Shown: positions 25,927-42,788 of the stretch, piece by piece
Numbering within the stretch: position 1 is the first letter of the stretch
Layout of the letters: each line of letters opens with the position of its first letter
NCBI RefSeq assembly: GCF_044647545.1
Contig: NZ_CP172818.1
From: Escherichia coli
Lineage (GTDB): Bacteria > Pseudomonadota > Gammaproteobacteria > Enterobacterales > Enterobacteriaceae
Length of the DNA: 64,000 bases
Reading direction: 5' to 3' (one strand)
Program-made: the position numbers and the translations under genes
Notes under the pieces: model-generated
Database searches by the model: none
Told to the model about the DNA's origin: nothing
The model's input: the letters and a program-made list of their open reading frames with translations, nothing else

Positions 25927-27024
25927 TCAGCCGCTAAAGACGTTACCTGCGCCCGGGGCGGTTTTCAGCACCCAAACACGTCCATAGTGGTTGTACCAAC
26001 CTGCGCGGTGTCCGGCTTCCGGCCCGATACCTTGATAAATATCGAAGTGTTGGCCTTTGATTGCACCACCGACATCCAACGCCACCATCAGCCGTAGTTC
26101 GTACTGACCGTTAAATTTGCCGTTATTATCCAGCAGCGGCACTTCTGCCAGTAAGGTTGTACCAGGCGGGATAATGGAACGATCGGACGCAACTGAAGCG
26201 CGACCAACCAGCGGCACCGCACTTGCCCCTTTCACCGGAGCAAAAGATTGCGGTTTAAAGAAGACGAAAGACGGGTTCTGTTCCAGCAGCTCGCGAACCT
26301 CGGCTTCACTGTGTGTTTCACCCCAGTGACGAATCGCCTGCATCGACATATCTTCTTTTTTCACTTCGCCACGGTCGATCAGCACCTTACCAATGCTGCG
26401 ATAGGCATGACCGTTTTTCCCTGCATAGCTGAAAAAGTTAAGCGGACTGCCATCACCAAAGTCGATATACCCACTACCCTGCACATCCATAATGAAGTTA
26501 TCCATCAGAGAGTTGCTGTAAGCGAGGATGTATTTATCGCTCAATGCCCCCGCGTAGATCTCCGCACGAGACGGCAGACGACCACGTTTTGGCGGCATAC
26601 GGTAAATCGGATACTGAAACTCGCCCTGGCGGGTATGGCGCGCCTGAATTACTGGCGTGTAATAACCGGTAAACTGCACGTTACCATAGTTGTCGGCACC
26701 TTCCATCTGCCAGGCATCAATGCCGAACTGGCGCATATTGCGGGTATCACCGCCTGCGCGCAGCCACTCTTGCACCGCGTTATAAACATTACTCTGGTTG
26801 CCATACAGACGCGGTGACGAATTACGGATATGGTTAATTTGCTCGGCAAAATCACCGGCGTTAATCGGCGCGCCAACGGCATCTGGCTGGTTCACCAGAG
26901 AGAAAGGCTGGGTAAATTTCCCGTCTTTATATTGCTGTCCGCGATCGGTTGGTTTGGAAGAGCAGGCGGCAAGCATTGCCACAACCGTGCCCATAAGAAG
27001 GTACTTTACCCAACGTCCTTTCAT
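25927..27024 (-). CDS. mltA: Membrane-bound lytic murein transglycosylase A
   Basis: ORF-track ORF extends to 27306 through the tRNA genes; the real 365-aa product starts MKGRWVKYLLMGTVVAMLAACSS (lipoprotein signal) at 27024. Confidence 0.9.
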   Translation of the reverse strand: MKGRWVKYLLMGTVVAMLAACSSKPTDRGQQYKDGKFTQPFSLVNQPDAVGAPINAGDFAEQINHIRNSSPRLYGNQSNVYNAVQEWLRAGGDTRNMRQFGIDAWQMEGADNYGNVQFTGYYTPVIQARHTRQGEFQYPIYRMPPKRGRLPSRAEIYAGALSDKYILAYSNSLMDNFIMDVQGSGYIDFGDGSPLNFFSYAGKNGHAYRSIGKVLIDRGEVKKEDMSMQAIRHWGETHSEAEVRELLEQNPSFVFFKPQSFAPVKGASAVPLVGRASVASDRSIIPPGTTLLAEVPLLDNNGKFNGQYELRLMVALDVGGAIKGQHFDIYQGIGPEAGHRAGWYNHYGRVWVLKTAPGAGNVFSG

Positions 27025-27191
27025 TGTTCTCTTCTTCAGGTTAAAAAATAAGGCGCAACGAAGATAACAAACCGCCGCGTTTAATGAAATGAGCAGCCTC
27101 TCCCTGACGCAAATTTTGCACAAAAACCAGGCTTTAGTGATTTGTTTTTGCTCAAAATCATACCAAATCCGTGATCTGGGTAAAAAAAAGG

Positions 27192-27219
27192 TTGCATGAA
27201 AACGCGAGCGGAGTATAGT
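27192..27219 (+). promoter_or_regulatory. Putative sigma70 promoter of the metZWV tRNA operon
   Basis: TTGCAT - 16 bp - TATAGT about 14 bp upstream of the first tRNA, preceded by an A-tract (UP-element-like). Confidence 0.5.
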
Positions 27220-27232
27220 GCGCATCCACGGA

Positions 27233-27309
<77 letters not shown>

Positions 27310-27342
27310 ATTAAAATTTGATGAAGTAAAGCAGTACGGTGA

Positions 27343-27419
<77 letters not shown>

Positions 27420-27452
27420 ATCAAAATTTAATGAAGTAAAGTAGTACGGTGA

Positions 27453-27529
<77 letters not shown>

Positions 27530-30500
27530 ATTATCTGAATACCCAAGTTTTCACAATCGTTTTTTTTATTTAAATCTTTCCTGAATCACAAAGTTTTTTA
27601 TCTCCCTTCCTCGAATAATCAATTACACTAAATTATCCCTTTCTGTATACTCAATCCCCGATATCCTTGTAATGATATTTTCATTACATCTAAATTCCCA
27701 ACGTTCAACTAAACACATCCACCCCAAAACATTTCTTCTTCAATCACCTAATAAACCCCTCATCCACAACTCCCCCCATTGATGATCAACACATCCATCA
27801 TCACAAATATTTATACTAATAAATCTCCACTCAAAAAAACAAAAAACAATGATGAATCGACTCATAAAATATCTTCAATTATACAAATGAATCCACTTTT
27901 CACAACTAATCTTTTTTCAAAACTAAAACTCAACATCAAAACAATAACCTTCCCATTTTTCCAATATCGTACCAACACAATACGTTTACCTTTAACCCAC
28001 CATCACTCACCCATACCATTTTCATCCATGATACACCGATATTTTCATCCCGAAATAATCCAATGATAAATTCCCAACCATTTGAATTAATCCCAACCAT
28101 TATTACAATAATACTATTCCTCCACGAAATCAATATTTCTATCCCCTCCCGAATCTCGATATTATTTTCACACCAACACAATAACTTCCCCTATAACAAT
28201 CTTCCCAACCCAAATAATCTCTAATCATATTCTATTTAACAATCCCACATTATTCTTAATAATAAATTAAAATTATTCTCTCTACAACCCAAAACACTCT
28301 AAAACACTACCAAACATTTTTATACACACTCACTTCAAAAACCACCCCAAAAATACTTACTGTATTTATATTTTAAATTATGAATTTCTTTAACCATCAC
28401 CCCTGATGATAAACCGAAACACACATAAATTTTTTCAATTCAAATCAACCCACCCATCACCAACAACCAAACAACATCCACACATATCTAAACTAAATTA
28501 TCCCCTCACTTTACGATTTCAACAATAAATCACAACTTACCAACATATATACTAAAAAATCAAATAATTACCCATTTTTTTCAACACATTCCCAATTTCC
28601 CTCTCACACTTTTGAAATAAAATAACAACATCTCTTCCCACATCCAATCCTGTACCCTCCTACCTAACAAAAAACGAATCCTACTCAAAATCCGATTTTC
28701 CAATAAACCGACTTACCAACACCAATAAAAACAACTTTTCCCTACAAATTTATACTTTAATTAAAACGAATCAAAATATCAATAACTCTCTACTTAATTC
28801 TTACATAAAATTTTAATAATATATCTTATTCATTTTTATTCTCCCTGATTAATATTTTTAATTACACTCACAAACCGTAACCCCATATATAATTTTTCTC
28901 ACCCACCATTCAAGAATACCCTCCCCCTCCGTTCCATAACATCCCCCCATAACCATTTCCTTCATGAATTAACACTTAAAATTCATCAAAAGATAACCAA
29001 TACAAACAATCTACCAAAAAAACAACATCACTCCTACATCAATTCAATATTTTATTCAATACTAATTGAATTAACAATATTCTTTAATGATTTACATCCC
29101 AATCTAACAATAAACAATTATATTCATACTATGGATTTACAAAACTATACGATATCTTCTAACTTATGATTAAAATTACTCATTAAATCATAAGATCTTA
29201 TCAAATTAAATTCATATCATTATACTACTACTTTTTCTTTTTTTATTTTAACCGATGTAACTACTCATTAAAAACAAAATCACTATGATTTCATCTAACA
29301 TAACAAATTATCCTTAACCACATTTTATATTCTTCTTCCACCAACTTCCTCGTTATGAGATTACATAATAACACCATCTCTTTTATCTTAAACAAATCCC
29401 ATTATACTACCCCCCTCATTTTTTATAATCAAAACTTCAAATATTCCCTATTTTTTACATCAAAAACATTAAACATTAAAAACAAATATTATCACACGAT
29501 CAATAATCTATTCTTTTCAATAATACATCACATCTATATTATCCATTCATTTTATCTTTTATATTTTATAAACCATTTACTACCATTCAATATTCACATT
29601 CAAACAGTACCTAAAATCTTTCCAAGTTTTCTTAATCCCTACACACTTCTTATCAAATCCATATCTAAATAAAATGTAATACATCTTTTACACCAAATCT
29701 CCCCAAAATCCCATTTACAATATTTCCTTCAAACAGTATTAAAAACATCCATCACATATCCATTATTATCCATATCCACCAACATGACTTTATACCGATA
29801 ATATTTATATTTTATCAATTTAATATAATTCCCCACTCTTTTTATTCTCCTCAATCAACCCATATCGATTTTAAACTAAAGATACCAATTATCCAGATTT
29901 AATATTCTCTTTACCACAATCCTTAACATCTCTCTCTTCACTCTATTTATCAACGTATATCCCTATACTATCCTCATACTTCACTACAATACTCTTCACC
30001 ACTCATCAGTTAAATTTAAAATACAACAACACAAAGTAATAAATAAAAAATACCACTTCGACACACACCTATTCAACTTTCTTCCACCAAACCCAAACTA
30101 ATAAATTGAATCAACCCATAAATCCCATCTTCACCCCATAACAAACACGAATCCATTCATAAATCATAAACAAACACATACTACAAATAAAAAAAATCCA
30201 ACTCCTACCCCCAATAATGATTAACACCCCAAATAACAATCTTTATACTTTTCTTTTACATACATCGATACACCACCCACCACCAACATACTAATCATCA
30301 TTTCTTTCCATTTTCCCCCAAACCACAATACCATTCTCTACACCCATAAAATCATCCATAATACTCTCCCCCAATCACACCTAAACCGACGTAAACAAAA
30401 ATCACCAGATTTTAACCAAAAAACTCACTCCAACTCATAAAAAATAACCGAACAACCGAATATATCATCCAATGACATGAAAATTAAAAACCCAATAAAA

Positions 30501-31641
30501 GAATGATCAACCAAACCATCATCACAATCATTAATAACACAACCTATAAAAACTAATATCTAACTAAATTAACGTCTTTTTAACACCATAATAACCCACA
30601 ACAATTCCTCTAAACCTTATTTAACTGATCCCAAATATTTATCGACATTTACACACCAATAATCTCTTTTAAATAAAATTCTCCCAGACACCCATAAAAC
30701 AATAAAGAAAAACATATTTATCCTCTTTTTTTTAATAACCAAGAATTTACCAAACAAACATAATAACAAACAAACAAACCAAAACAATAAACAATATTTT
30801 TATTATGAAACCAAAATAATTAATCCATATCATCATCTAAACATCCACCTACATCACACATACAACAACAAGAAATAAACCTCATCTAAAAAAAATCCAC
30901 TTTCTTTTATTTCATATAAATTTATATATAAAATTAATACTACGAATAAAATATATTTTCTCTAAATACATATTTAAAACAACAATACTCAATTTATGAA
31001 TTAAAATTCTTTCTCAAAAATCATAATCACAATATTCTTTTTTTTATACATAAAACAAAAAAAATAATCATCATAACTTAAATTAAATAATCTCACTTAT
31101 AAAACCGATAACTTTATTTTTTAATAATAAAAAGCATAACAATGAATTCAATTATTTAAAACAAATAAAATTCATCAAATTAAACTAAATTATAATAACA
31201 CAATATTTACAATTTATCAAAAAAAATTATTATTTTACCAAAAAATAAAACAAAAAACAAAAATTTAATTTTTCAAATACACAAACAACAACAAAACAAC
31301 AAATACATAATAATATAACGGGTGTTTTTTTGTTTCTTGTCTCCCATAAAAGAGCCAGCCATCTCAGACGACATTCCATATTTTTTTTTAACCACCCACC
31401 CAGAAATATAACCTCTCCATTCACACTTACACAATTATTTCATACTTATATCAATACTCCCAAAAAAAACAACACTCAAATAATAATACTCAAACAATAA
31501 CATACAAAATAACAACAAACAAACGAATTTTTAATTAAAAACTTTATTTTCAACGACATTCAAAATCCACATCATCACAAAACATCTAATATTCATAAAT
31601 TTATCTATCAACGAAATATAAATTCATAATAAATAAAAACA
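27530..31641. other. About 4.1-kb non-native, apparently non-coding block with extreme G-depletion on the + strand (A/C/T-rich, AT-rich); origin and function unknown
   Basis: By eye, most 60-nt lines contain 0-3 G. No ORF longer than about 105 codons in any frame, and those present translate to low-complexity peptides. No obvious long direct or inverted repeats, no integrase, no duplication of the tRNA 3' end. Fills the whole gap between metV and the amiC stop, where K-12 has only tens of bp (from memory). Confidence 0.85.
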
Positions 31642-32895
31642 TTATCCCCTTCTCGCCAGCGTCGCCCCATCGGCAAAATACGCTTTAATTCCCGCAAGAA
31701 TAGACTCCGCAACTTCCTGCTGGAAAGTCGCCGTTTTCAGTTTACGCTCTTCCTCAACGTTACTGATAAACGCCGTTTCGACCAGAATGGAGGGAATATC
31801 TGGTGCCTTTAGTACGGCAAACCCAGCCTGTTCAACTTGATTTTTATGCAGCTTGTTGATTTTACCGAGCTTATTCAGCACCGCTTTACCAAACTTAAGG
31901 CTGTCGGCAATGGTCAGCGACTGCACCATATCGAACATAGTGTGGTCGACATAGCGGTCACCGCTTTTGCTTACGCCACCAATCAAGTCCGAGGCGTTCT
32001 GGGTTTGTGCCAGATATTTTGCCGCAGTACTGGTTGCACCTTTGGTTGAGAGCGCAAACACAGAGGAACCGCTCGGCTGACGACTGGTAAAGGCGTCGGC
32101 ATGGATAGAGACAAACAGGTCAGCACGCTGTTTCTGGGCTTTTGCTACGCGCACTTGCAACGGAATGAAGATGTCTTCATTGCGCGTCATGTACACCTTC
32201 ATATTGCCCTCTTTCTCGATCAGAGAGCGCAGACGGCGAGCTATTTGCAATACCACGTCTTTTTCGCGCGTTTTGTATTTCCCCACCGCACCGGAGTCTT
32301 CGCCACCGTGGCCAGGGTCAAGCATAATGACAATCGGACGATCCCGCCCAGCTTTACCCGGTTGTGGACCACTTTGTGCTGGCGGCACCTGCTTTTCGAG
32401 GTCGCCTTTGTTGTAATCCTCCAGCAGCGCCAGCAGCGGGTCCTGCATGTCCTGAGCATTGGCAGGATAGAGATCCATCACCAGACGCTCTTTAAACCCG
32501 GCGACCGGCGCAAGGGCAAACAGCTGCGGTTTTACGTTTTGCTTTAATTCAAAAACCATGCGTACGGTTTGCGGGTCAAATTGCCCGACGCGCGCCGACT
32601 TGATGAACGGGTCGTCTGCACGAATTTGTGCCGCCATCCCCTTGAGTACCGAGTTCAGGTTTACATCTTCGATATCCACCACCACGCGTTCCGGGTTACT
32701 CAACGCGAACTGCTTATATTTCAGCTGACGATTTGATTCTACCGTCACGCGGGTGTAGCTGGACGCAGGCCAGACGCGCACCGCCACGACCTGGCTGACC
32801 GCAGCCAGACTGACCTGACTTACGCTCAATAGCCACATGGCACCCGCGCCTTGCAGTAAACGACGACGGCTGATTGCAGTGTTGGATCCTGACAT
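31642..32895 (-). CDS. amiC: N-acetylmuramoyl-L-alanine amidase AmiC
   Basis: ORF-track ORF 31642-32985; the 417-aa product starts [23 protein letters not shown] (Tat twin-arginine signal) at 32895. Confidence 0.9.
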
Positions 32896-34539: not shown

Positions 34540-36366
34540 TTATTCCCGCGAACTAAACAACGCCGCCAGACCACTGCGCCGCTCGGTGCGCGTGGCAATT
34601 GCCGCACTTAAAATGCGCTCATCGGCATACAGCGACAGACGGCGACGCGCGCGGGTCACTGCGGTGTAAACCAGCTCTCGCGTTACTACCGGCGTGCGTT
34701 GACTCGGTAAAATCAACGCCGCATGGTCGAACTCCGATCCCTGCGATTTATGTACCGTCATCGCCCACGTCGTTTCGTGCTCTGGCAGGCGACTCGGTTG
34801 CACAGACTTAATATTGCCGTCCGGCATCGCAAACCAGACGCGCGTCCCCTGCCCACGATCCAGCGCAATACCGATATCGCCATTAAACAACCCAAGCGCG
34901 CTGTCATTACGGGCAATCATCACCGGTCGGCCTTCGTACCAACGAGAGTGCGGATGACGATGAATTTTGCGCTTCTGTTGCATAAACTGCTCAATTCGCT
35001 CATTCAGTCCAGCCACGCCAAACGGCCCTTCCCGCAGGGCGCACAAAAGCTGGTACTCATTGAACGCCTGAATGATTAAATCCGGCTCGGCACGCGCTTG
35101 CAGCAGATCCAGATAACGTCCGTAACCCGCAAGAGCTTCCTCAAGCATCGCAATATAATCTTCGCCGCTCTGTAAAAGCCGTTTTTCGATATCAGAAAAA
35201 TCCTGCTGAAAAACGGTTTTCACTGCCGTTTTATCACCACGGTTGATCGCCGCAGCTAACTGACCAATGCCAGAATCGCTGCCGAAACGATAGCTTTTTT
35301 GCAACAGGCAGAGACTGTCGCGCAAAGATGCCGCTTCTGTGCCAGTTCCTGCCGGAACGTGAGTTCCCGTCAGGCGGCTTAGCTGCCCGGCACGCTCGGC
35401 GGTAAAGCCGGCATTGGCATAAGCACAAATATCGCCCAGCACAGCCCCAGCCTCAACCGAGGCCAGTTGATCACGATCGCCGAGAAAGATCACTCGCGCA
35501 TGATCGGGCAAGGCGTCTATCAGTCTCGACATCATCGGCAGATCGATCATTGACGCTTCATCTACCACCAGCACATCAAGATGCAGCGGGTTACCGGCAT
35601 GATGGCGTAAACGCTGGCTACCTGGCTGCGCGCCCAGCAATCGGTGCAAAGTACTGGCATCTTCCGGAATGCGTTTCTTTTGTTCATCGGTCAGCGGTAA
35701 CTGGCGCAAAGCCTTGCCGAGAGATTCGGTTAAGCGCGCGGCAGCTTTACCCGTTGGTGCAGCCAGACGGATACGGCAGCGTTCGCCGTCGGCCATTTGA
35801 ATTAACGCTGCCAGCAACTTCGCTACGGTGGTCGTTTTACCGGTGCCAGGGCCGCCGGAAATCACTGAGATCCGCCGCGTCAGCGCCACTGCCGCCGCAA
35901 CTTTTTGCCAGTTAATTTCATCGCTTACTGGAAAAAGTTTGTCCAGGGTTTGCGCCAGTAGTGCTTCATCAACCTCAATGGCATGATTCACTTCGTTGAA
36001 AAAGCGTGCCACTGTGCGCTCGTTACACCACATGCGATTCAAATAAAGACGATCGCCACAGAGGATCATCGGCGTTGGTTCATCTCCCCGGCTGACCGCT
36101 TGTGAAGCCAGCAAGCATTCTTCCCAATTTTGTAGCTCACCGATTTCACTGACACAGGTCGCCAACAGCGGATGCGATGCCTCGTTATTTTCCAGTCGTG
36201 AAAGCGGCAAACAAACGTGTCCCTCTCCGGCATCATGACTTAACAGTGCCGCCGCGAGGGTGACGGCAGGATGTTCATCTCCCGCCACGGTCAGGGCAAA
36301 CTGCACGTCCAGCGGGCGTAGCTGTTTGTGCTCCACAGCTTCCAGTAATTGCTTTTGCAATTTCAT
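34540..36366 (-). CDS. recD: Exodeoxyribonuclease V alpha subunit
   Basis: 608-aa ORF with Walker A motif [10 protein letters not shown]; the start codon overlaps the recB stop (TAATG). Confidence 0.92.
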
Positions 36367-39300
36367 TACGCCTCCTCCAGGGTCATACCGGCAAACATCT
36401 CATCCATCAGGTCAATCAACCCGGCGTTGGGTCGGGTCGCGTAGATCCCTTGTTGCGGATGTTCTTTATCAACGCCACGCAGGAACAGATAAATAACGCC
36501 GCCAAAGTGGCGCTCATAGTCGTAATCAGCAATGCGATGGCGCAGATAACGGTGCAGCGCCAGGGTATAAAGCTGATATTGCAGATCATAGCGGTGCGCC
36601 TGCATTGCCGCTGCCATAGCCTGTTGGGTGTAAGCCGAACTGTCTTCACCCAGCCAGTTGGATTTATAGTCGAGCAGGTAATAACGCCCTTCGTGGCGGA
36701 ACACCAGGTCGATAAAGCCTTTTAACATGCCACGTACCTGCATGAACTCCAGCGGCGGGCAGCCAGCGGATAGCGGGTCAAACTGGCGAATTAGTGCATC
36801 AAGCTGACTGGCGATAAGCGGTTCACTAATCGGCAGGTAAAACTCCATCTCCACCTGTTTATCGCGATCGGAAAGCTGATTCAGGCTAACACCCGTTTCA
36901 TTGAGAGGTGCCTGGAGGACAGCCGTGATCCACTCAGTCAACACCGGTTCCCACTGCGGTTCAAAGCCGCCGAGCTCCAGTTTTTCCTGTACCCAGTTCG
37001 GGTCAACCGGCTGGGTAAAATCGAGGTCTTCAAACAAACTGTGCAAGAATGTCCCCGGTGACGCACCGCGCGGGAACTGATGCGGTGTTAACGTCGGTTC
37101 TTCAACGACGCTGACCACGCCTGCGGCATCAACATCCAACCGTGGCATCAGATCCTGAGCGATACCGTGACCACGCTGCTGCAAACCGGAGTAGCTGGTG
37201 ACACGCCAGTTATCGCCGGGCAATCGTTGTAGCGTCCTCGCATTCAGTTCTGCAGTTAATGCATCATTAACCTGCCAGGGCTGGTTATCACCAGTTTGTG
37301 CCGTTTGCCAGGCAATATCATCATCGCATAACGCTTCAATACAGGTGCGAAGCCCTGCCGCATCTTGCGGTTCCCCTTTTTGCAGCAAACGCCCGAGCGC
37401 ACTTTGGTGGACGTCGGTATCACCTTTTTTATCGCCACGACGGCGCACCAGCGGTGCAACGCCGAGACTGCAATGCCAAACCGAACGCGTCAGCGCCACG
37501 TAAAGCAAACGCAGATCTTCCGCCAGACGTTCGGCCTCCGCGAGGTCGACGCTTTCTGGCGCAGCATTAAGATCCAGAACAGCCTCAAACGAGTGGCGAT
37601 CGTGATAAAACGCCTGATCCTGGACGCGGAAATTGGTGATAAACGGCAGCCAGACCAATGGATATTCCAGCCCTTTCGATTTGTGGATCGTGACAATCTG
37701 CACGAGATGTTTATCACTTTCGAGACGCATTTGTTGGCTGGAGGCATTACTGTCTGGCTCGAGGATATGTTGCGATAACCAGCGTACCAGCGCATGTTCA
37801 CTTTCCAGCTGCGTGCCGGCTTCTTGTAGCAATTCGCTGATATGCAAGATATCGGTAAGACGCCGCTCACCGCCTGCTGTTGCCAGCAAGTTTTCTGCAA
37901 TGTTACGCGCCGACATCAGCGCCCGCAGCATCGGCATAACGCCACGTTTGCGCCAGATTTGCCGATAACCATCGAACTCTTCGACTACCGCATCCCACGC
38001 ATGTTCGTCATTATTCAGCGTTTCAATATCCAGCGCATTCAGCCCCATCATTGACGTTGCCAGCGCACTGCGCAGGGTGTTCTCACGTTCGGGTGTCATC
38101 ACCGCCTGCAACAGCCAAAGCATCTCCTGTGCTTCCAGAGTTTCAAAAACACTGTCGCGGTTCGAAAGGTAAACGGAAGGGATTTCCAGCAGCGTTAAGG
38201 CATCGCGCACCTGAGCGGCCTCCTGGCGGCTGCGCACCAGCACACTGATGTCCGAAGCACGCACCGGACGCGCGTCGTCGCCGTTCATCAGCAACGCTTC
38301 GCCCCGCTGTCCGGCTTGTAGCCAGTCGCGGATTTGCGCAGCACATACCTGCGCCATGGTACTTTGATAGTCGCCAACGCCGCAGCTTTCGCCTTCCATC
38401 AGCCACATTTTCATCGCAGGCTGCGTTTCACCTTTAAACACAAAACGTAACGCCTGATTTTTCCCGGCTGATTTCACTGGAATAAAAGGAATTTCGCGAA
38501 ACATGAACGCGTCATCAGTCTGACTGAAAAGTTTGTTAACGCTGTTCACCATTCCCGGTGCGGAACGCCAGTTGGTGTCTAAGGTGTAGTGGGCGTGAAC
38601 TTCGCTACGCGCCTTCATATAAGTGAAGATATCCGCACCCCGGAATGCATAAATGGCCTGTTTCGGGTCGCCAATCAGCAACAATGCGGTTTCCGGCTGA
38701 TGGTGCCAGATACGGCGAAAAATTCGGTACTGCTGGGGGTCGGTATCCTGAAATTCATCGATCATTGCCACCGGGAATCGCGTACGGATCGCCGCTGCCA
38801 ATACCTCGCCGCTTTCACTACGCAGCGCGGAATCGAGCCGACTTAACATGTCATCAAAACCCAATTCGCCACGGCGGCGTTTTTCACGCGCTACTGTTTC
38901 GCGGATCTCAGCTAATGCGCGAGTGATCACCAGATCGCGGATCGACAATGGTTCTGCAAGCAGTTGATCGATCGCCTCAAACAGTGGATGTCGCGGGGTT
39001 TCCCCCCGGCTTTCGTGCGATCTTCTAAGAAACGCTGAGAGAATTTTTCCAGCGACTCTGGCAACTGATAGCTGTTGGTCTCTTCTTCTGCCCAGGCGCT
39101 GATCTTGTCGATCCATTTAGCCTGATTGCTACGGTTAAACTTGCGTCGATCAATACCAGAAGATTCGATCAGCGCATCCAGTTCACCCACCGCGTCGCGC
39201 CACTGCTGTTTTACCGTATCAATACGCGCCACAATTTGCGCGTGGCGGGAAGCCAGCGTTTCATCATCGGGCGGCGGCGCTTTGATAACCGGCGCTTCGC

Positions 39301-39907
39301 CTTGCAGATAACGATTAATATCGCGCAGTAACGCCTGCGGCCCTTTCCAGGTTTCAAAGACGACCTGGGCAATTTCACGCGGCAGCGGGTAGCAGTGGCG
39401 ACGCCAGAAATCGGCGCAGGCCTGGTAACGTAGCAGAGACTCATCTTCAATCAGCTGCTGCTCAAACAGCATGCCGGATTCAAAGGCATTCAGGTTGAGC
39501 ATGCGCTGGCAAAAACCGTGAATAGTAAAGACTGCCGCTTCATCCATCTGCCGTTCGGCTAACAACAACCACTGCGCGGCTTGCGCTTTATCGTCGATCT
39601 CTTCCAGCAGGCGTTTGTACAGTGGATTGTCGGTGGTTTCACGCAGACAGGCGATGCGCAACTCGTGGATATTGCTACGGATACGACCGCGCAATTCTGC
39701 CGTGGCAGCCTCGGTAAAGGTGACCACCAGCAGTTCTTCAACGGTCAGCGGGCGGGGAAAGGCGGCAGAACCGCCTAGTCCAAGTAACAGGCGCAAATAG
39801 AGCGCCGCAATCGTAAAGGTTTTGCCTGTGCCGGCAGAGGCTTCAATCAGGCGCTCGCCCTGTAAGGGCAAGCGCAAAGGATCTAGTGTCTCGGCGACAT
39901 CACTCAT
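36366..39907 (-). pseudogene. recB: Exodeoxyribonuclease V beta subunit RecB, disrupted by a -1 frameshift (or a homopolymer sequencing error)
   Basis: Two overlapping same-strand ORFs, 38927-39916 (329 aa, RecB N-terminus with Walker A ASAGTGKTFT) and 36366-39116 (916 aa, rest of RecB). The frames switch at a run of 6 C at 39000-39005 (+ strand); 7 would give ...RTKAGGETPRHPLFEAIDQLL... in one frame. Total span is 3542 bp against 3543 bp expected for 1180 aa plus stop. Confidence 0.85.
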
Positions 39908-42788
39908 TCTTTTCACTCATCAGGGGCATTGTTTGCTGCAACGCGCTGACGTTCTCCCACACTTTCCAGCCTTCAGGATGCACATATTCGGCTTTCCCGT
40001 TCTGGCTGCCGGAAATCTGCGACAGAATAGCCATACCTTGCGGCTCGACCACCGCCTGATGGAAGAAATCAGCAAGTTTTTGCGGCGTCAGCAGTTTTAT
40101 CTGGGCCACGATTTTATCACGCGAATCGAAGCGCATATTGCCGCGATCGAAATCTTTACTTAACTTCGATGCTTCTTCGCCGAGCGTTTGCGGTGCCTGC
40201 AGCATCTGGGTAATTACCGCCTGCTGGATTTGCGCAAACTCTTCTGGCTTCATCGCCCGCAGTTTCGCTTCTGCGGTCGGGAAAAACGCCTTGTAACGCT
40301 CCCACAAGAATGAAGGCTGTTTATCATTGCTTTGCAACAGGAAGCCCATGCCCCACTGACGCCCCACGCTCATTGGAAACGCAAACACGGCATAGCCCAA
40401 CTGTTCTTCGGTACGCAACTGATTGTAGAACCACGGCTGTACGATCTGCCCCAACAGAGAACTATACGCTGAACTGGTGTATTCATCGTAGCCAGTCGGT
40501 ACAAATACCGCTGCCAGTGCGGAGTCGGTGCTGTTACCGGCTTTTTCAAAGATGACGGATTGTTTTTTATCGACCACGACATCTTTGTTACGACACCACT
40601 CCGAACCATCAGCGCCCAACTGTTTTTGCACATCGCGTGCCAGCGTTGTTGCCTGGGCCTCGGTCATGTTGCCGATAACCATAAACTCTGGTCGAGCCCC
40701 TGATTTTAAGGCGTCGCGATAGGCCAGAACTTCTTTCAAAGTAATGGAGGGCAAAATTTTGCGCCGTTCATCTCGCGAGAAGTATGGTACTTGCGAGAGC
40801 ATCTGCGCGGGCATAATCGCCTGCTCGAACGCTTTGCCCTTTTCTGCAGAATCCATCATCTGGTTATACCAGGACTTCGCCTGCTCAAGCTGATCTTCCG
40901 TAGCGGTATAGCTAAAGTACCCCTCGAGCAATGCCTGGAACAGCTGCGGCAGGCGCTGGGTGTAACCATTGGCATTAACCATAAGGCCGTTGTTAGCATT
41001 GGTGGAAAAACTTATGCCACCAACCGACGCCTGGTTGCTTAACTGATCAAGCGCCAGCCCTGCGAGATAATCATTGAGCGCAAACATCACCTGATTGCGG
41101 GCGCTATCCATGGCTTTTGGATTACGCAAAATCAGGCTGACATCAGCTTTGGGTTCGCTGGAAAAATAACGGCTTGGCGCATACACCACACGCAGATTCG
41201 ACTCATCAACAATCAGCTCTGGATGGTCATATTTCTTCTCTGACTTAATCAGCGAGAAATCGTCAGGAATATAGGGGTTAAGCTCTGGCAAAGAGAGCGC
41301 AATGTCGGCGGCTTTTTTCTGCCAGTCAGCGAAAGTTTGTGCGCTAATTTTATCGACCTGATACGGCGCATCGACAAAGTAAGCCGTTTTGTTGTGCGGC
41401 TCTTTCGGGCTGATATACCAGATACGCGCATTCTGCGGCGTCATCATCGCCAGGCGTTCTTTTACTGCTTTAGCGTCGTACCGATCGGCAATATTGACTG
41501 CATCCAGCGTATGCTCAACAGGAACGCGAATCATGGTATCTGCCAGCCATTCGACGTAATCCATATCACGGGTGATTGACGGATAACGGAAGTCGATATC
41601 CAGCACATTCGCCAGTTCATCGAAGTATTGTTTATCAATCCCTTTTTCGCGTAACAGATTGAGGTAGCTAAAAATGGCCGCCACAACCTGATCGCGATTC
41701 GCCAGACCTTTATCGGTTAAAGACGCAGAGATCGCTAATACGCCGCTGTTGCCGTTGACGATAGGATCGGAATTGGCGCTAATACCCTCAACTAATCCCT
41801 GCTTTTGCAGCCAGTCAGAAAGTGTACCTGGGCTGCGATTACCAATCAGATAGGTAATCAATTCATCCGTTTTACTACGGAACTTCGCTGAATTGTTATC
41901 GATGCGAAACTCAACGCGCAGAACTTTACGCGGCAACGCCGGGACGTAATGAATGATAATGCCCTTTTGCGCGTCGGTGACTACCGGCACGGTGATTTCC
42001 GGTTTTTTGCTCTCTTTGTTCGGCACGCGACCAAAGGTGTCCGCCGCCATTTTCGCCAACTCCGGCAACGGTTTATTGCTGTAAATAACCGCCTTCATCA
42101 GATTGGCGGAATAGTACTTCTCGTGGAAATCTTTCAGCGCCTGCTGTACCGGATTACCTGGTTTGTCGCTTAAAGTTTCGAGGTTACCACCAGAAAACTT
42201 TGAACCGGGGTGTGCCGGGTTAATGGTTTCTGCGCTGACCTGTGCCATGCGCATCCCGTCACGCGTACGCGCCATGGTTAATTCGGCATTCACTGCATTA
42301 CGTTCACGTTCGGCGTATTTCTTGTCGAGCAAGGGTTCTGCAATAGCATCGGCCAGGCGGTCTACCGCACCGGGTAAGGCATCGTTCTCAACTTCCAGAT
42401 AGAAAGCCGTGCGATACGGTGCCGTGCTGGCATTGTGACTGCCACCGTGCATTTTGAGATATTCGGCCAGACTGTCAGCCTGCGGGTACTTTTTCGACCC
42501 CATCAGACTCATGTGTTCAAGGTAATGCGCCAGCCCCTGATACGCCTCGGGATCTTCCAGCGACCCAACGGGCACCACCAGCGCCGAGAGCGATTTAACC
42601 GCCTGCGGATCAGAAACCAGCAAGACCACCATACCGTTATCCAGACGTATAGCCTGATACTGGCGGTTATCTTTATCACTTTTACGGATGGTTTCCTGAA
42701 TCGGCTGCCATCCCGTTTCTGCCTGACTTAAGGGTGCCCAAAGGGCAACAAACAACAATAATGCTTTGAACCAGATGCTGCGGGGCAT
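39900..42788 (-). CDS. ptrA: Protease III (pitrilysin), periplasmic M16 zinc metalloprotease
   Basis: 962-aa ORF with signal peptide and inverted zinc-binding motif HYLEH; recognised as PtrA; 3' end overlaps the recB start by 8 nt. Confidence 0.92.
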   Translation of the reverse strand: MPRSIWFKALLLFVALWAPLSQAETGWQPIQETIRKSDKDNRQYQAIRLDNGMVVLLVSDPQAVKSLSALVVPVGSLEDPEAYQGLAHYLEHMSLMGSKKYPQADSLAEYLKMHGGSHNASTAPYRTAFYLEVENDALPGAVDRLADAIAEPLLDKKYAERERNAVNAELTMARTRDGMRMAQVSAETINPAHPGSKFSGGNLETLSDKPGNPVQQALKDFHEKYYSANLMKAVIYSNKPLPELAKMAADTFGRVPNKESKKPEITVPVVTDAQKGIIIHYVPALPRKVLRVEFRIDNNSAKFRSKTDELITYLIGNRSPGTLSDWLQKQGLVEGISANSDPIVNGNSGVLAISASLTDKGLANRDQVVAAIFSYLNLLREKGIDKQYFDELANVLDIDFRYPSITRDMDYVEWLADTMIRVPVEHTLDAVNIADRYDAKAVKERLAMMTPQNARIWYISPKEPHNKTAYFVDAPYQVDKISAQTFADWQKKAADIALSLPELNPYIPDDFSLIKSEKKYDHPELIVDESNLRVVYAPSRYFSSEPKADVSLILRNPKAMDSARNQVMFALNDYLAGLALDQLSNQASVGGISFSTNANNGLMVNANGYTQRLPQLFQALLEGYFSYTATEDQLEQAKSWYNQMMDSAEKGKAFEQAIMPAQMLSQVPYFSRDERRKILPSITLKEVLAYRDALKSGARPEFMVIGNMTEAQATTLARDVQKQLGADGSEWCRNKDVVVDKKQSVIFEKAGNSTDSALAAVFVPTGYDEYTSSAYSSLLGQIVQPWFYNQLRTEEQLGYAVFAFPMSVGRQWGMGFLLQSNDKQPSFLWERYKAFFPTAEAKLRAMKPEEFAQIQQAVITQMLQAPQTLGEEASKLSKDFDRGNMRFDSRDKIVAQIKLLTPQKLADFFHQAVVEPQGMAILSQISGSQNGKAEYVHPEGWKVWENVSALQQTMPLMSEKNE

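Follow-up and report, generated by a model that had tools for sequence, protein, structure and literature searches.

A G-containing patch in the G-depleted metV-amiC block of an Escherichia coli assembly: a fragment of the island-less spacer, probably left by consensus or polishing

Introduction

Between the tRNA gene metV and amiC, the window (the whole 64,000-nt stretch of Escherichia coli DNA that was analysed) holds a block with very few guanines on the plus strand and, near the right end of this block, a short stretch where G is much more frequent. The question raised by this locus is what the short stretch is, and whether it has the same origin as the sequence that surrounds it. A preliminary description, based on the letters alone, had pointed to positions 31315-31385 as a G-containing and T-run-rich island, and had proposed for it a remnant of different sequence, such as a terminator-like element or an insertion junction, in a block that would not be homogeneous. 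The following sections deal with the locus and its flanks, the origin of the block, the identity of the patch, and the process that could have produced both.

The Locus and Its Flanks

The window is a segment of the E. coli chromosome with the order gudP ... fuc ... mltA-metZWV, block, amiC-argA-recDBC ... lysR; the coordinates of the features discussed are collected in Table 1. The displayed flank identity is 100.0% to FDAARGOS_497, IMT16316, Ecol_881 and ECONIH1. FDAARGOS_497, the closest relative, is identical to the window through metZWV up to position 27530, and the ∼60 kb of flanks differ from it at three points, namely one SNP and two one-base deletions.

As for these differences, the SNP is an A>G change in gudP (window 1803), and a private one-base deletion in the tcdA-mltA intergenic region (window 25881) turns GGTTATCCC of FDAARGOS_497 into GGTTTCCC. 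In recB (window 39002-39008) there is a C6 run, which is C7 in FDAARGOS_497 and in the other top relatives; the loss splits the gene into two ORFs, of 916 aa (36366-39116) and 329 aa (38927-39916), the protein having 1,180 aa in relatives. The shorter run probably reflects a homopolymer error that remained in the assembly, not a true frameshift; both private one-base deletions of the flanks are of the kind typical of residual long-read assembly errors.

Regarding the site itself, metV is a known integration hot spot (PMC7545054), and the metV-amiC interval is structurally polymorphic in E. coli: some strains have a 5.57-kb five-gene island, and most have a 73-nt spacer with two terminators. 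In public assemblies (loci L012-L021), at least four natural configurations occur, i.e., the empty 73-nt spacer, the five-gene PTS/antiterminator island, a T6SS island, and the T6SS island together with the five-gene island; a look-up of contigs anchored on AmiC returned normal locus types only (empty site, five-gene island, T6SS island, or both).

Table 1. Features of the metV-amiC locus in the window
Feature	Coordinates	Strand	Basis or remark
metZ-metW-metV, three initiator tRNA-Met genes	27234..27530	+	Rfam tRNA, 61.4 bits each; annotated in relatives; intact left anchor
Corrupted island copy, 4,111 nt	27531..31641	-	Global alignment to L001/L006
Left junction, ATTATCTGAATACCCAAG	27531..27550	+	Similar both to the island-less spacer at its start, ATTATTGAACACCCTAACG, and to the beginning of the native island
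Phosphoglycerate dehydrogenase remnant	27586-28323	-	
KpsF/GutQ remnant	28378-28833	-	
MalY/PatB remnant	28836-29752	-	
PTS EIIC/B remnant	29752-30910	-	
PRD antiterminator remnant	30931-31453	-	
64-aa ORF	31230..31424	-	Frameshifted echo of the PRD protein N-terminus (MNGQEVI... -> VNGEVI...)
Patch, TAACGGGTGTTTTTTTGTTTCTTGTCTCCCATAAAAGAGC	31316..31355	+	38/40 identical to the island-less metV-amiC intergenic region
Right part of the G-containing stretch, CAGCCATCTCAGACGACATTCCATA	31356..31380	+	Native PRD-gene subsequence
T9 run, native TTTTTTGTTGT minus two G's	31381..31389	+	Complement of codons AAC AAA AAA of GYNKKYG
Wrecked native leader terminator upstream of the PRD gene	31457..31499	-	Folding
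amiC	31642..32895	-	Intact right anchor of the locus

The G-Poor Block Is a Deletion-Ridden Copy of the Native Island

In relatives, 5,566 bp of native island separate the 3' end of metV from the stop codon of amiC, and carry five minus-strand genes: a phosphoglycerate dehydrogenase, a KpsF/GutQ isomerase, a MalY/PatB protein, a PTS EIIC/B component and a CAT+PRD antiterminator. Global alignment of the block to this island gave ∼1,460 single-base deletions, distributed as 879 G, 315 T, 227 C and 40 A, and leaves the block 1,455 nt (26%) shorter than its parent; retention was 97.5% for A, 81% for C, 80% for T, and 10.7% for G. Outside the patch, there were 17 substitutions and 5 insertions in 4,057 bases (0.54%). 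By alignment, then, the block is an almost pure subsequence of the native island, not foreign DNA. All five island genes and the native operon leader terminator are destroyed in it. The block was absent from the RefSeq complete E. coli genomes, where the best match had 84.7% identity over 84% of the query, and none of ten ORFs taken from it occurred in a collection of 15 billion proteins.

The loss of G depends on context: no G was kept before C (0/290), one before G (1/177) and eight after A (8/276), with 27-49% kept in [C/G/T]GA. A simple deterministic deletion rule was rejected, given that the same 5-mer, CTGAA, is both retained and deleted. G-to-A conversion of the deaminase or bisulfite type was also discarded, with two G>A substitutions against 879 G deletions and a length that is not unchanged. 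C and T are lost more and more often toward the right, up to a maximum immediately left of the patch, where the loss reaches ∼48% of all bases. The ends of the block match those of the polymorphic segment, the corruption running from the metV 3' end to within ∼20 nt of the amiC stop.

A channel that consists of deletions, with 0.54% of substitutions and insertions, looks like an algorithmic decision on accurate sequence and not like read noise. It would be quite improbable, then, that the block derives from one or a few very poor single-molecule reads that spanned the island and missed the G signals, with the patch as a brief change of base-calling mode. Such reads would agree with a base-specific and context-dependent loss, with a gradient over ∼5 kb that suggests a single molecule, and with the strand asymmetry, which fits evidence from one strand; however, in raw reads, deletions at 26% always come with comparable substitutions and insertions, here 0.5% with 97.5% of A kept, and the island, as unique sequence, is expected to have the same coverage as the near-identical flanks. 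Moreover, a base-caller cannot invent 38 of 40 bases of another strain's spacer, which is what the patch contains (see below).

At the left end, the ∼20 nt after metV (27531-27550) appear to be a blend of the start of the island-less spacer, ATTATTGAACACCC, and that of the native island. When this stretch was forced onto the native sequence, deletions of bases other than G became locally over-represented and an A had to be inserted at 27538; it is possibly a second trace of the empty-site allele, a reading that its ambiguous alignment leaves tentative. In island-bearing strains, metZWV ends in a different terminator located inside the left end of the island (CCGCAAT...ATTGCGG + T7, z = -4.0; L006 27590-27660). 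This terminator is destroyed in the window (27528-27580, z = -0.15), so that the tRNA operon is without a terminator as written.

Toward the right end, the native leader upstream of the PRD gene (L001 6840-6925, minus strand) folds at -31.6 kcal/mol (z = -6.1), and its counterpart in the window at -1.9 kcal/mol (z = +0.9); the native hairpin (L001 6846-6912, minus strand) is followed by T9 and can no longer be recognised in the window. Compared with BglG/LicT leaders, the native hairpin is, by analogy, a candidate target of antitermination.

Composition of the Patch

The 71 nt at 31315-31385 contain 11 G, 17 A, 16 C and 27 T, against 2.5% G elsewhere in the block (27540-31638), and the quoted sequence and its G enrichment are thereby confirmed. 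The binomial probability of at least 11 G in 71 nt is 1.6e-6; when the G's of the block were re-placed at random, the 71-nt maximum reached 11 in 0.18% of 5000 trials (scan-corrected P ∼0.002), and the excess is beyond the random fluctuation that had been named as its refutation. The other 71-nt windows of the block have at most six G's, save those overlapping the patch. A context-aware expectation computed from the native sequence was 2.1 retained G (sd 1.2), and a value of 11 or more occurred in none of 2e6 simulations. In addition, the stretch 31319-31354 accounts for 9 of the ∼30 substitutions and insertions counted over the entire block; hence, the patch departs from the deletion-only rule of the block.

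The two long T-runs of the preliminary description are present, a T7 at 31325-31331 and the T9 at 31381-31389; runs of 7-8 T's or A's are nothing unusual in the block, which has five other T-runs and seven A-runs of at least 7. In the right part of the G-containing stretch (31356-31380), several G's survive in contexts that usually lose them, and the spacer sequence GCGCCATTCAGCGCC has matching G's for some of these.

Identity of the Patch

A search with the patch alone matched 3,353 of the 5,426 complete E. coli genomes, always in an intergenic position, with E = 1e-8 (against 28 Gb); the search that the preliminary description had proposed for this segment thus led to the island-less spacer. 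Alignment of the K-12 locus identified this spacer: in island-less E. coli (K-12, BL21), the 73 nt between metV and amiC read ATTATTGAACACCCTAACGGGTGTTTTTTTGTTTCTGGTCTCCCATAAAAAAGCGCCATTCAGCGCCTTTTTA. The patch contains the 3' arm and the T7 of the metZWV terminator, the inter-terminator stretch, and, in complement, a portion of the T-tract of the amiC terminator. From this sequence match, the patch is a fragment of the empty-site metV-amiC spacer, with an origin other than that of the rest of the block; the suspicion that the block was not homogeneous and held a remnant of different sequence proved right. The 59-nt patch had no exact match in genome_contigs or metagenome_contigs.

Regarding the distribution of the spacer, its motif was found in no fetched locus where the five-gene island adjoins amiC, and it was present next to amiC where the cluster is lacking; it also adjoins amiC, in the K-12-type form, in a locus with a T6SS island and no five-gene cluster (the T6SS-only type, L015). 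The patch was also considered as an allelic variant of the island itself, and this option was rejected: five native alleles, with 91-100% identity, all lack the patch sequence and read AAAGTTTGTTTTTTTGTTCATTTCTGACATAAAAAATCC at that position.

The patch replaces 39 nt of the native PRD-antiterminator gene by 40 nt, in register. It departs from the spacer at two positions, and at one of them, 31338, it has the T of the native sequence, as expected from a column-wise mixture of two alleles. As for its position, three scoring schemes were used to align the 73-nt spacer with the intact island, and each placed the best local alignment at L006 32728/32735-32764 (= L001 6666-6702), which is exactly the native segment replaced by the patch. 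The score was at or above the maximum of the shuffles, with 0-1% of shuffled islands scoring as high. The spacer-like stretch in the PRD gene, TGTTTTTTTGTT ... CATAAAAAA, is a chance resemblance; this resemblance accounts for the place where the patch landed. Over L001 6666-6704, in the CAT domain (...VRNEQKNKLYK...), the native sequence agrees by chance with the K-12 spacer at ∼72% over 43 nt, the best match that the island offers.

These two results bear on a generic corruption of the sequence, introduced on purpose in silico or caused by a faulty file, a processing error or another software failure, in which the resemblance to the spacer would be incidental to the mechanism. A scripted edit fits the deletion-only channel and the sharp borders at annotated features as well, and the exact sequence was in none of the public collections searched. 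Nevertheless, a fault of this kind cannot create 38/40 identity to a sequence missing from the fetched island-bearing loci, nor can it put the spacer sequence at its one best-alignment site; besides, the context-dependent and non-deterministic retention of G is unlike a simple script, and the private homopolymer-type indels of the flanks point to a real long-read assembly. On balance, generic corruption is unlikely, with some weight left to it.

Function Tests on the Patch

The spacer from which the patch derives carries two terminators: in K-12, that of metZWV (GAACACCC-UAAC-GGGUGUUU + T run) has z = -2.9, and that of amiC, on the opposite strand, z = -6.1. The patch has the 3' arm, GGGTGT, alone, and thus no rho-independent terminator stem; the T-runs of a terminator are there, as T7 and T9, the latter arising from G deletion. 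The region around the arm (31300-31345, plus strand) folds at -1.8 kcal/mol (z = +1.30), and 31300-31400 gave z = -0.07 on the plus strand and -0.68 on the minus strand against shuffles, so the folding that had been put forward as a check found no structure signal. A scan with the terminator consensus returned a weak minus-strand site with a poor tail (31372-31358), and Rfam reported nothing beyond the three tRNAs in 27000-32500 at E <= 1. A working terminator or a structured RNA was rejected on these grounds: no fold signal on either strand, no Rfam match, and a weak consensus match only. The terminator-like reading holds for the source, a terminator-bearing spacer, but not for the patch, which keeps the 3' arm and T7 and folds no better than shuffles.

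An att-type junction of a tRNA-integrated island was also rejected, the patch having no tRNA-derived sequence and the native island no integrase. The insertion-junction reading is correct insofar as the spacer is the junction sequence of island-less genomes, but the patch is no physical insertion junction in this DNA. Regarding coding capacity, the 64-aa minus-strand ORF exists as described, but it is not the only minus-strand ORF of the block, which also has one of 81 aa (27936-28181, minus strand) and several of 40-56 aa. The exact sequence of its product was not in the collection of 15 billion proteins; as a frameshifted PRD remnant absent from that collection, it was discarded as a real small protein. 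In conclusion, the patch encodes nothing, terminates nothing, and has no biological significance.

The same data weigh on the option that the block is true DNA, a decayed and G-stripped island with a short gene-conversion tract from the island-less allele, where the patch would be a relic terminator or junction. The sequence does exist in the window, with no further support, and metV is known as a site of frequent integration (PMC7545054). However, this would require ∼1,460 one-base deletions in 5.6 kb against one SNP and two indels in the 60 kb of flanks; the pattern is not deaminase-like (2 G>A versus 879 G deletions), and the patch does not fold as a terminator. True DNA of this kind is therefore very improbable. 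Its most explicit form, a genuine 4.1-kb G-stripped DNA in which some process removed plus-strand guanines (coding-strand cytosines) one by one from a silenced island, and gene conversion then re-imported half a terminator as the patch, is barely credible. To our knowledge, no mutational process deletes G selectively.

A Consensus or Polishing Artefact as the Probable Origin

The patch is best explained as a by-product of a consensus or polishing step that merged island-bearing and island-less sequences, not as a feature of the DNA molecule; the probability assigned to this explanation is roughly three in four. What the sequences show is the derivation of the block by deletion, the identity and placement of the patch, the near-identical flanks, and the loss of all function; the type of software step, and its having been fed two populations of sequences, we infer from these. 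The evidence mixed in that step could have been mixed reads, or related genomes used for polishing.

The proposed sequence of events is as follows. Across the island, the island-less sequences would supply gaps only, and each island base would come near the threshold between being kept and being deleted; between the complete island and its absence, one subsequence of the island would then be about as "central" as another. Which bases survive would depend on weights specific to base and context, with A kept almost always, C and T mostly, and G almost never. Such weights would give the clean deletion-only pattern and the A > C = T > G ranking, with borders that coincide with those of the polymorphic segment and flanks that remain near-identical. 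As for the 73-nt spacer, it would be forced to align inside the island and would settle on its best chance match, in the PRD-antiterminator gene, where its bases, G's included, would outvote the island bases or mix with them column by column, leaving the G-containing patch.

Two observations are those looked for in an artefact of this type: the errors stop at the limits of the polymorphic segment, beyond which the sequence is near-identical to that of relatives, and bases of the alternative allele occur at the best-alignment site of that allele. Polishing mistakes, seen as dense clusters of changes, are known to arise from balanced structural heterogeneity (Wick et al. 2023, PMC9980784). A literature search for a named polisher bug (Homopolish, medaka) found only the general statement on balanced heterogeneity. 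We know of no published example of such an extreme base-specific deletion outcome, or of this exact G-stripping signature.

Some features speak against a consensus or polishing artefact. The strand asymmetry, with unequal losses of G and C and of A and T, is not predicted by a pile-up of reads from both strands, so base-asymmetric software weights or evidence from one strand would be needed. The rise of C and T loss from left to right, with its peak left of the patch, has no detailed explanation in this scheme. Finally, the flanks carry no trace of a second population. The island-less allele cannot be derived from the island-bearing one by simple excision, hence the second population would be another strain or reference genomes.

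Significance

The value of the patch is diagnostic: it marks the block as a probable computational chimera of two metV-amiC alleles; the block is neither foreign DNA nor a new element, and hypermutation did not produce it. What truly stands at this locus is almost certainly the 5,566-bp island in its intact form, as found in FDAARGOS_497, ECONIH1 and strains related to them. Whatever is called within 27531-31641, be it genes, islands predicted from composition or "novel ORFs", is to be discarded. More generally, assemblies can be screened for the following signature of mixed-haplotype consensus failure: a block that reads as a near-perfect subsequence of a relative's accessory region, with loss of one base type, ends abruptly at a polymorphic site and includes a short stretch of the alternative allele.

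Comparison with Known Systems

The closest counterpart of the patch is the island-less metV-amiC region of the K-12/BL21 type, with the metZWV terminator on the plus strand and that of amiC on the minus strand. The patch shares with it GGGTGT + T7 and the spacer up to ...CCCATAAAAAAGC; unlike it, the patch lacks the 5' arm GAACACCC and the amiC hairpin, has two mismatches, and does not fold. In addition, the island-less spacer lies directly between metV and amiC, whereas the distances of the patch from metV and amiC are 3,786 and 287 nt, respectively.

Regarding the surroundings of the patch, both its flanks are subsequences of the gene for the native BglG/LicT-family PRD antiterminator (L001 6014-6838, minus strand; Pfam CAT_RBD + PRD), in its CAT RNA-binding region, and the T7 run is common to the patch and to the codons CAA AAA AAC of that gene. 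In contrast to the native gene, the frame is destroyed in the window and 39 nt are swapped for spacer-type sequence, so that no protein is possible.

As for the block, its extreme G depletion on one strand recalls deaminase- or bisulfite-type hypermutation and engineered G-less cassettes, but its G's are deleted rather than converted, and it is 26% shorter than its parent. The polishing errors described at sites of balanced heterogeneity (PMC9980784) resemble it in the dense changes at a structurally variable locus, the near-perfect flanks, and the residual homopolymer indels; the examples reported there are invertible switches and prophage excision, whereas the two alleles merged here would be unrelated sequences.
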